This document shows positions 9,030 to 10,375 of a stretch of DNA of 64,000 bases, one piece after another; position 1 is the stretch's first letter; every line of letters starts with the position of its first letter. The position numbers and the translations under genes are program-made. The DNA is from Promethearchaeota archaeon (GTDB lineage Archaea > Asgardarchaeota > Lokiarchaeia > Sigyniarchaeales > SOKP01), in assembly GCA_019057865.1 (NCBI GenBank), contig JAHLWP010000010.1, forward strand, positions 54,086 to 118,085. The letters run 5' to 3'. The notes under the pieces were generated by a model, which saw only the letters and a program-made list of their open reading frames with translations, had not been told where the DNA came from and did not search any database.

Positions 9030-10375
9030 GGTTTTTTCAACCCCTCCTCATTTGTCATTACTATAACCGCAGCATATGCCGCTCCAGGGCCTCCTATTGA
9101 GTGAGCAATAGCTCTGCCATTTTCAATTGTTTTTATTTGATGCTTTCCAGCATCCTCTCTAAGCTGAAGTGCTGCTTCACCTGTAGACATTATCCCGGTA
9201 GCACCAACAGCATGACCACATCCAATTAATCCACCGCAAGGGCAACATGGTAATTCACCATCTAACCATGGCCCCTCCCCTGGTTTTTCAAAGGATTTTT
9301 CAATCCATGGACCACCTTCCCCAAAAGGAACAAACCCAAGCTCCTCATAAGAGATGACTTCTTATCCAGAGAATATCGAACTGATATTCATTGTCCTGAG
9401 AAGGCATCATGGAGCTCTGCTAAATCAATTTGTTCCTTTATTTTATTATAGTCTAAGCCTGCCATCTTATACGCGGCTTTTGCAGCAAAAATATTTGAAT
9501 ATAACCTTCCCATATCTTCTCTATTTCCTATAAAACAATCGGTATTTGCTGCTGCGACACCAGTAATCCAAATCGGCTTTTCAATTTTTAATTCTCTTAC
9601 TTTTTCTTCACTTGCGAGAATTAATGCTGCTGATGCTTCTGAATATAAACAACAATCAAGCATCTTGAAGGGATGACAAATTATCCTTGAGTATAGGACA
9701 TCATCTAAGGAAATTTTCATAGGGGATTGTGCTTTTGGATTGAGCATAGCATTCCCATGGTTTTTTACGCTAACTTTAGCCAATTTTAACTAATTGTTAA
9801 GATTTAAAGCCATTTGTTCTTCGGTAGGATTACCGAATTCTTCATAATGGGCGTTTACCATAGAAACGTACGAGGTTGCTGCCATCATTCCCATAGGATA
9901 TTTACGAAATATGTAGAACTTACACCATTTTTTCGTAAGTCATATCAGTAGAATAGGCGATGGCATTCAAAACTTCAGGTGTCGTAGTTCCTGTTTGTTC
10001 GTCATAGCAATCATTGCATTTTTCGACTCCTATACATAAACATAAGTCAGATAAGCCAGAAGCTACTTCTGCAAAAGCCATTCGGACAGTATATCCTCCT
10101 GTTGCTCCTCCTGTTGCTATACGAGTACCAGGTTTATTATTCATCCCTATATAGGAATTACAAAAAATATCTGGCATAAATTGTCTTTCAAATAGCTCAT
10201 TATAGATTCCATATACCGTAGATTGTAAATCCTTATGAGTTATTTCAGCACCGTTATTATTTGCGTCCTCAAGTGCTAATTTTGTTGCATCATATGCTAA
10301 TTCAAAATATGTCTTATCTAAATACTGGGCTTTAAAAGGAGTAATTCCTATACCTATAATCGCAACTTTCTTCAC
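9026..10375 (-). CDS. Thiolase-superfamily (SCP-x/Ltp-like) protein, 4 exons (10375-9932, 9900-9806, 9775-9393, 9363-9026), 419 aa after removing three predicted BHB introns
   Basis: 1350 nt minus 31+30+29 nt = 1260 nt = 419 codons plus stop. Spliced junctions read DMTYE/YPMG, EEQMAL/VSVKNH and ELHDAFSGQ/EVISYEELG. C-terminal GGLIGCGHAVGATG. The stop overlaps the DUF35 ATG (ATGA). Confidence 0.88.
9364..9392 (-). other. Predicted BHB mRNA intron 3 of thiolase 1 (29 nt)
   Basis: mRNA: GAUGCCUUCU-CAGG-AC^A-AUGAAUAUC(AGUUC)GAUAUUCU-CUGG-AU^A-AGAAGUCAUC. Exon stem 9/10 bp; central helix has one A.G mismatch. Removal restores the frame. Confidence 0.75.
9776..9805 (-). other. Predicted BHB mRNA intron 2 of thiolase 1 (30 nt)
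   Basis: mRNA: AAU-GGCU-UU^A-AAUCUUAAC(AAUUA)GUUAAAAUU-GGCU-AA^A-GUU. Contains an in-frame UAG. Spliced product is MALVSVKNH. Confidence 0.85.
9901..9931 (-). other. Predicted BHB mRNA intron 1 of thiolase 1 (31 nt)
   Basis: mRNA: U-UACG-AA^A-AAAUGGUGUA(AGUUC)UACAUAUUU-CGUA-AA^U-A. Perfect 4-bp central helix. Spliced product is TYEYPMG. Confidence 0.85.

Follow-up and report, generated by a model that had tools for sequence, protein, structure and literature searches.

How can a protein-coding gene persist when short inserts close its reading frame? The question is raised by a thiolase-like gene on the minus strand (10375-9026) of a 64-kb window, the whole 64,000-nucleotide (nt) stretch analysed here, taken from contig JAHLWP010000010.1 (54,086-118,085) of a Promethearchaeota archaeon of the Lokiarchaeia (genome of 4.26 Mb, 29% GC). 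The gene carries three inserts, and the first of them, intron 1 (9931-9901), introduces an in-frame UAA as the fourth codon of the insert. The unspliced mRNA therefore stops after 151 codons, within an operon of overlapping genes, and removal of all three inserts at their bulge-helix-bulge (BHB) cut points leaves an open frame of 419 amino acids. We consider it highly likely that intron 1 is a live pre-mRNA intron with a relaxed BHB motif. A reading of the DNA letters alone (hereafter the sequence-only reading) had proposed that EndA, the splicing endonuclease, cuts such an intron, which the comparative evidence strongly supports; cleavage and ligation in the cell are inferred from the same evidence, and the mRNA is very probably spliced.

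The insert and its boundaries are directly observed. Exon 1 (10375-9932, 148 codons from a GTG start) ends with ACT TAC GAA at 9932, exon 2 begins with TAT CCT at 9900, and the predicted spliced junction of intron 1 reads ACTTACGAA|TATCCT. When the window gene is aligned with 14 orthologs of the genus, three clean gaps of 31, 30 and 29 nt appear, and the 31-nt, frameshifting insert that the sequence-only reading had placed at 9901-9931 is borne out on the minus strand. All intron-free full-length loci (49/49) encode DMTYEYPMG at this point, and TYEYP returns exactly when the RNA is cut just past the second nucleotide of both bulges, which was the earlier prediction; the 32- and 34-nt copies at this site give the same result. 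Known BHB introns are cut at this very position, between the second and third bulge base (PMC2738675). Six placements of the insert fit the ortholog protein, one of which combines a 4/4 helix with a 5/5 stem, and this placement falls exactly at 9931-9901. The chance of finding such a helix and stem at any of six adjacent placements was 0.17%, as estimated from 200,000 draws of 31-nt segments from coding DNA of the same genome. An assembly artefact was considered and rejected: a Logan contig of a public run is identical (100%) over 1,747 nt including all three inserts (the sample may be the same), and diverged copies occur at seven other loci.

The motif itself is as the sequence-only reading had drawn it, down to the frame that ends in TYEKMV* without splicing. 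The 5′ strand of the central helix, with its bulge (9937-9931), consists of UACG in the exon (9937-9934) followed by AAA (9933-9931), with a predicted cut at 9932/9931. The 3′ strand (9906-9900) consists of CGUA in the intron (9906-9903) followed by AAU (9902-9900), with a predicted cut at 9901/9900. The central helix is perfect, with 4/4 pairs, and the intron-side stem AAAUG(G)UGUA/UACAUAUUU is closed by the loop AGUUC. The directly adjacent exon-side helix that closes the 3′ bulge measures 1 base pair (bp), which places the motif outside the strict canonical BHB definition; folding predictions place a further exon helix, imperfect and offset, slightly farther out, by a few bases. The intron 1 motif is thus a relaxed, bulge-helix-loop-like BHB, in agreement with the earlier assignment. 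The AGUUC loop is common to introns 1 and 3 (9931-9901 and 9392-9364), but since other copies of intron 1 carry different loops, it does not count as a conserved signal.

When 154 genomes of the order were searched by pattern, an intron at this site turned up in G073, G107 and G127, which represent two other genera. Four further same-site copies lie in metagenome contigs, giving a total of eight copies of 31, 32 or 34 nt. The three same-family carrier genomes are deposited as Promethearchaeota (two; one Loki_b31) and Hodarchaeota (one). Seven of the 15 metagenome matches, as well as G063, were discarded as chance pattern matches without a thiolase. A scan of a genome collection beyond the family returned only the three known carrier genomes, and viral contigs gave a single match, to unrelated phage sequence without a thiolase.

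Conservation of the motif across these copies is directly observed. The central helix is fully paired (4/4) in 8/8 copies, its sole change being from C-G to U-G. In the BHB register, 96.6% of the cells are paired across the eight copies, against 20-58% in slid controls. The intron-side stem is paired in 93.8% of cells and shows two-sided changes at 3/6 pairs, from A-U to G-C at pairs 1 and 2 and from G-C to A-U at pair 5. None of 500 shuffles matched the paired fraction or the covariation score, and 36/500 reached three two-sided pairs. The second base of the 3′ bulge varies between A, C and U among the copies, as expected for an unpaired base. Every copy of intron 1 halts the unspliced frame within 3-4 codons (once with TGA, otherwise with TAA); given the kinship of the copies, this early stop and the open resume frame found in all of them may be due to chance.

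Purifying selection on the gene is likewise observed directly. The ratio of nonsynonymous to synonymous substitution rates (dN/dS) after intron 1 is 0.078 (dS 0.31) between locus L113 and G107, sister genes that each carry all three introns, and 0.088 between the window gene and its nearest intron-free ortholog; pairs of intron-free genes give 0.03-0.06. These low values downstream of intron 1 indicate purifying selection on sequence that is untranslatable unless the intron is removed. Recombination, or a degree of relaxation, may account for the somewhat raised ratio in carriers. The window gene retains 254 of the 256 residues that are invariant in the family, and no second, intact copy of it is present in the genome.

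The enzymes that such splicing would require are present: the genome encodes two EndA paralogs, at G000:C71:81890 and C69:38574, and an intact RtcB. The 200-amino-acid EndA alpha finds its best alignment in the EndA alpha of Aeropyrum pernix (3P1Z, E 3e-35) and retains Y125, H133 and K164 (the catalytic Tyr, His and Lys), R157 and W183, plus the K44/R46 loop. Its gene lies at L122:1171-1773 (G000:C71), and the loop that holds the K44/R46 equivalents is the one described as 'Crenarchaea-specific'. In A. pernix, the K44/R46 loop enables the cleavage of relaxed bulge-helix-loop introns (PMC3241643), and an Aeropyrum-type loop suits a motif with just 1 bp in the exon helix next to it. The second EndA paralog appears to lack the catalytic His and Lys and to play a structural role. 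Judged by these sequence features, the host encodes a predicted two-subunit EndA able to cut relaxed motifs, together with a ligase. Introns are called by ARAGORN in 18/30 tRNAs of the genome.

These elements can be assembled into a model of the splicing reaction. The end of exon 1 (UACG) would pair with the end of the intron (CGUA). The resulting 4-bp helix would have a 5′ bulge of 3 nt on one side and, on the other, a 3′ bulge or loop that is loosely closed. EndA, with its two subunits, would cleave past the second nucleotide in both bulges, and RtcB would ligate GAA to UAU. Introns 2 and 3 would also be removed, yielding the 419-amino-acid thiolase-like protein.

Several observations weigh against a live intron in the window copy. 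According to the folding model, its open BHB conformer costs 4.5-6.1 kcal/mol, which ties with intron 3 as the worst of the 13 introns scored in the genome (range 0.1-6.1), and the exon helix adjacent to the motif is only the single base pair described above. In addition, the eight copies amount to about two sequence groups, so that the covariation counts are few and are not independent events, and the branches used to measure selection may in part be older than the insertion. One alternative is a pseudogene disrupted by small, unremoved hairpin insertions resembling miniature inverted-repeat transposable elements (MITEs). Three disruptions in a non-universal metabolic gene, in a genome that holds other thiolase-like paralogs, would suit such a gene. 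Yet its 419 codons are free of any other stop or frameshift, dN/dS downstream stays at 0.08-0.09 in carriers, compensatory changes have accumulated within the insert, and the same class of insert interrupts EF-2, all of which makes decay of the gene very improbable. As to the identity of the insert, a MITE or other short mobile repeat was rejected, the insert being single-copy; matches to it in the rest of the genome do not exceed 14 nt.

Translation across the insert would leave the mRNA uncut. Translational bypassing elements, such as those of T4 gene 60 and the mitochondrial byps, are insertions of about 30-50 nt with a stop and a hairpin, which is also a fair description of intron 1. The ribosome could hop over the insert in this manner or shift frame on the A-run: in the window copy the take-off and landing triplets are both AAA, a stop and a hairpin are present, and 8/8 copies are open in the resume frame. 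However, the take-off and landing triplets match in only 2/8 copies, four copies would require a +1 shift and the other four a +2 shift, and the peptide that would be inserted is not conserved. Intron 2 is in frame with its stop, so no shift could rescue it, and the pairing between exon and intron, which the copies keep, would be unnecessary. Of all the explanations weighed here, passage of the ribosome across the insert is the one to which we give the least credence.

The remaining alternative accepts that the intron is spliced and concerns how its folding is used. The sequence-only reading had noted a competing, longer hairpin, UUACGAAA/UUUCGUAA, and suggested that it might hide the motif and act as a conformational switch. 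The hairpin does exist: for the window copy it is the prevailing predicted fold (P ~0.8-0.9), and G127 and L113 retain it. In the window copy, the folding model gives the central helix P 0.90-0.98, but the bulge A residues slide onto the U-run (P 0.94 and 0.79). Because the central helix is common to both folds, the change between them amounts to a local register slip, plausibly overcome by enzyme binding. A selected switch that gates splicing, and hence expression of the thiolase-like, DUF35 and SCP2 genes, would find further support in the unspliced mRNA, which would be read for 151 codons before a stop, inside an operon whose genes overlap. On the other side, the hairpin shows no two-sided change in its eight pairs and is broken, uncompensated, in 5/8 copies. 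Of the two pairs specific to it, one is broken in 3/8 copies and the other in 2/8, by substitutions that keep or strengthen the BHB stem. In G073, L107 and L112, the extra pairs of the hairpin have P 0.00-0.06, and the first pair of the BHB stem has P 0.62-0.99. Moreover, no ligand- or protein-binding element is evident in the insert, and most orthologs lack the intron. A selected switch is therefore quite unlikely, and as a conserved feature the idea is not supported.

If intron 1 is a spliced intron, its extended hairpin is better seen as a tolerated weakness than as a selected switch, and it may lower the splicing efficiency of the window copy. The slid hairpin, in which the 5′ bulge is buried, would arise as a by-product where, as in some copies, an A-run lies opposite a U-run. 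To act on the motif, the enzyme would have to capture or induce a minor conformer, and splicing of the window copy might be slow.

How the intron reached this gene can be approached from the tree of spliced coding sequences, in which the window gene nests among its intron-free genus relatives L155-L157. Monophyly of the intron 1 carriers is rejected by the approximately unbiased (AU) test (p 5.5e-9), run with a midpoint root and without the partial sequence L112, on a group defined by intron presence and tested after the tree had been seen. Such scattering of carriers points to horizontal spread. Four substitutions and one indel separate intron 1 of the window from the G127 copy. The 48 bases flanking intron 2 show 1 difference from a distant carrier and 8-11 from the sister clade, and an 18-nt coding segment after intron 3 (the FEKPGE region, ~9300-9283, minus strand) is present in the window gene and most orthologs and missing from the sister clade; these two observations point to conversion tracts that would have arrived with introns 2 and 3. 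In the case of intron 1, all carriers share codons D to P, but a flank that matches is also seen in 3/49 intron-free loci; within 24 nt, no clearly greater closeness of the carriers is apparent, and the tract is too short to call. The most likely source of intron 1 is another lineage, from which it would have come horizontally through recombination or homing-like conversion. Repeated precise loss stands as a formal alternative to horizontal gain, as unrooted counts cannot tell one from the other. No homing endonuclease was found among the scanned neighbours of the window gene, a scan made at the window locus only.

Intron 1 is one of nine intron sites found over ~70 loci of the gene family, each with a BHB placement that restores the frame. 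A different insert occurs one codon upstream (TY|EYP) in six more genomes of the order. It is seen at L016:1487-1569 (G002) and also at L096, L103-L106, L108-L110, L119 and L121, mostly with a second intron 16 nt later. This upstream-site intron has its own fixed flank codons and seemingly never occurs together with the window's intron among the loci seen.

Inserts of this class extend beyond the thiolase family. When ~800 orthologous open reading frames (ORFs) from 1.52 Mb of the relative G006 were set against the host genome, 8 host genes proved to contain ~13 inserts, 29-33 nt in length and bounded by BHB motifs, among them the genes for EF-2 and acetyl-CoA synthetase (five inserts); ordinary in-frame indels mostly lacked the motif, and G006 had about five BHB inserts of its own. 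Examples are the 28-30 nt inserts on the plus strand of G006:C1 at 337487, 1129378 and 1505071, in genes that are intron-free in the host genome. It is likely that Lokiarchaeia splice many ordinary mRNAs through the tRNA machinery (~1% of genes here) and that ORF-less introns of ~30 nt spread horizontally site by site, with at least nine mobile sites in one family.

In the literature searched, cbf5 is the only archaeal coding sequence in which EndA-spliced introns are confirmed (PMC2738675, PMC7714728). The intron of the cbf5 pre-mRNA, found in Desulfurococcales and Sulfolobales, is 16-44 nt long, ORF-less and often relaxed (PMC2738675; Watanabe 2002 and Yoshinari 2006, as cited in Yokobori 2009, PMC2738675). 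It resembles intron 1 as a short ORF-less intron in coding sequence, with a relaxed BHB, the same cut rule and a host with a hetero-oligomeric EndA. Yet cbf5 carries a single intron at a single site, its inheritance has been vertical, with losses, and its splicing has been demonstrated, whereas the thiolase-like gene is an Asgard metabolic gene with three introns per mRNA, nine sites in its family, patchy, non-monophyletic carriers and splicing deduced by comparison. In Haloferax volcanii, HVO_1309 carries a BHB intron in its 5′ untranslated region (Schwarz 2020, PMC7714728). Both mRNAs are substrates, demonstrated or predicted, of the splicing endonuclease, but the HVO_1309 intron lies in the leader while intron 1 breaks the reading frame. 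The non-canonical tRNA introns of Asgard archaea and Crenarchaeota share with the thiolase-like inserts their BHB boundaries, repeated gains and a two-subunit EndA; they are described in tRNA genes only (bioRxiv 10.64898/2026.10.13.758758), whereas the host here is an mRNA. No report of coding BHB introns in Asgard archaea was found in the searched literature, which excludes most subscription journals.

If this reading holds, the closest prokaryotic relatives of eukaryotes would own a spreading, multi-intron form of mRNA splicing that is independent of both the spliceosome and group II introns. A multi-intron metabolic mRNA would bring protein-catalysed mRNA splicing, exon structure and intron mobility together in the lineage closest to eukaryotes, with a bearing on the origin of introns and on that of unconventional, tRNA-ligase mRNA splicing. 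Genes that appear 'fragmented' in Asgard annotations may be intact. Intron 1 is a boundary case, among the weakest-folding BHB motifs of its genome yet kept under selection, and its natural variants with and without the competing hairpin, among which L107 and L112 are G-C-closed and L115 is mixed, form a ready series for defining the requirements of EndA in mRNA.

Exon 2 (9900-9806), delimited by ortholog alignment, leads to intron 2 (9805-9776), which is 30 nt long and in frame with a UAG, pairs GGCU with GGCU, and occupies a site that is also filled in 8 other loci. Exon 3 (9775-9393), placed from the sequence and ortholog comparison, is followed by the 29-nt, frameshifting intron 3 (9392-9364), with a CAGG/CUGG helix (3/4 pairs) and a 5-bp exon helix; its site is also occupied in 7 other loci and in L172. 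Exon 4 (9363-9026) overlaps the DUF35 gene through ATGA.

The sequence-only reading called the host a thiolase, which holds in part. An intron-free ortholog of the gene matches archaeal and SCP2-type thiolases (7YVY, 6ESQ, 6HSJ, and Ltp2 6OK1) and has a Gly at the position of the acylated Cys of solved thiolases; because of this replacement, the host is probably an SCP2-type thiolase-like protein rather than a classical thiolase. Downstream on the same strand lie an intact DUF35/ChsH2 partner gene (9029-8535), with a zinc ribbon and an OB fold, and an intact SCP2-like gene (8532-8161) with a weak Pfam match. The operon (10375-8161) of a Cys-less SCP2-type thiolase-like gene, DUF35 and SCP2 is similar to Ltp2-DUF35 aldolase modules. 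A second thiolase-like gene on the minus strand of the window has a 30-nt BHB insert at 63647-63618, with a GGUA/UACU helix and two in-frame stops, whose removal gives GN|MDHF. In G001 (L015:3516-3674), 52 codons of the thiolase 5′ end are duplicated ~760 nt upstream of the intact gene, and an ORF for a membrane protein separates the two.

Elsewhere in the host genome, ~30-nt BHB-like inserts were seen in the genes for EF-2, acetyl-CoA synthetase (five), leucyl-tRNA synthetase and small GTPases, and in other genes, the two inserts of the leuS region being judged by eye. They lie at G000:C82 index 563 (minus strand), C82 40887-41342, C75 2683 (plus), C3 5137 (minus), C56 2606 (plus) and ~17980 (minus), and, all on the plus strand, C63 36099, C49 ~5720 and ~6060, C28 ~11140 and C48 ~46560. 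An in-frame TGA also occurs in the motif LCWK*GYG of MvhD-like genes on several contigs (e.g., C14, plus strand, ~45920, and C23, minus strand, ~164260); it probably encodes selenocysteine.
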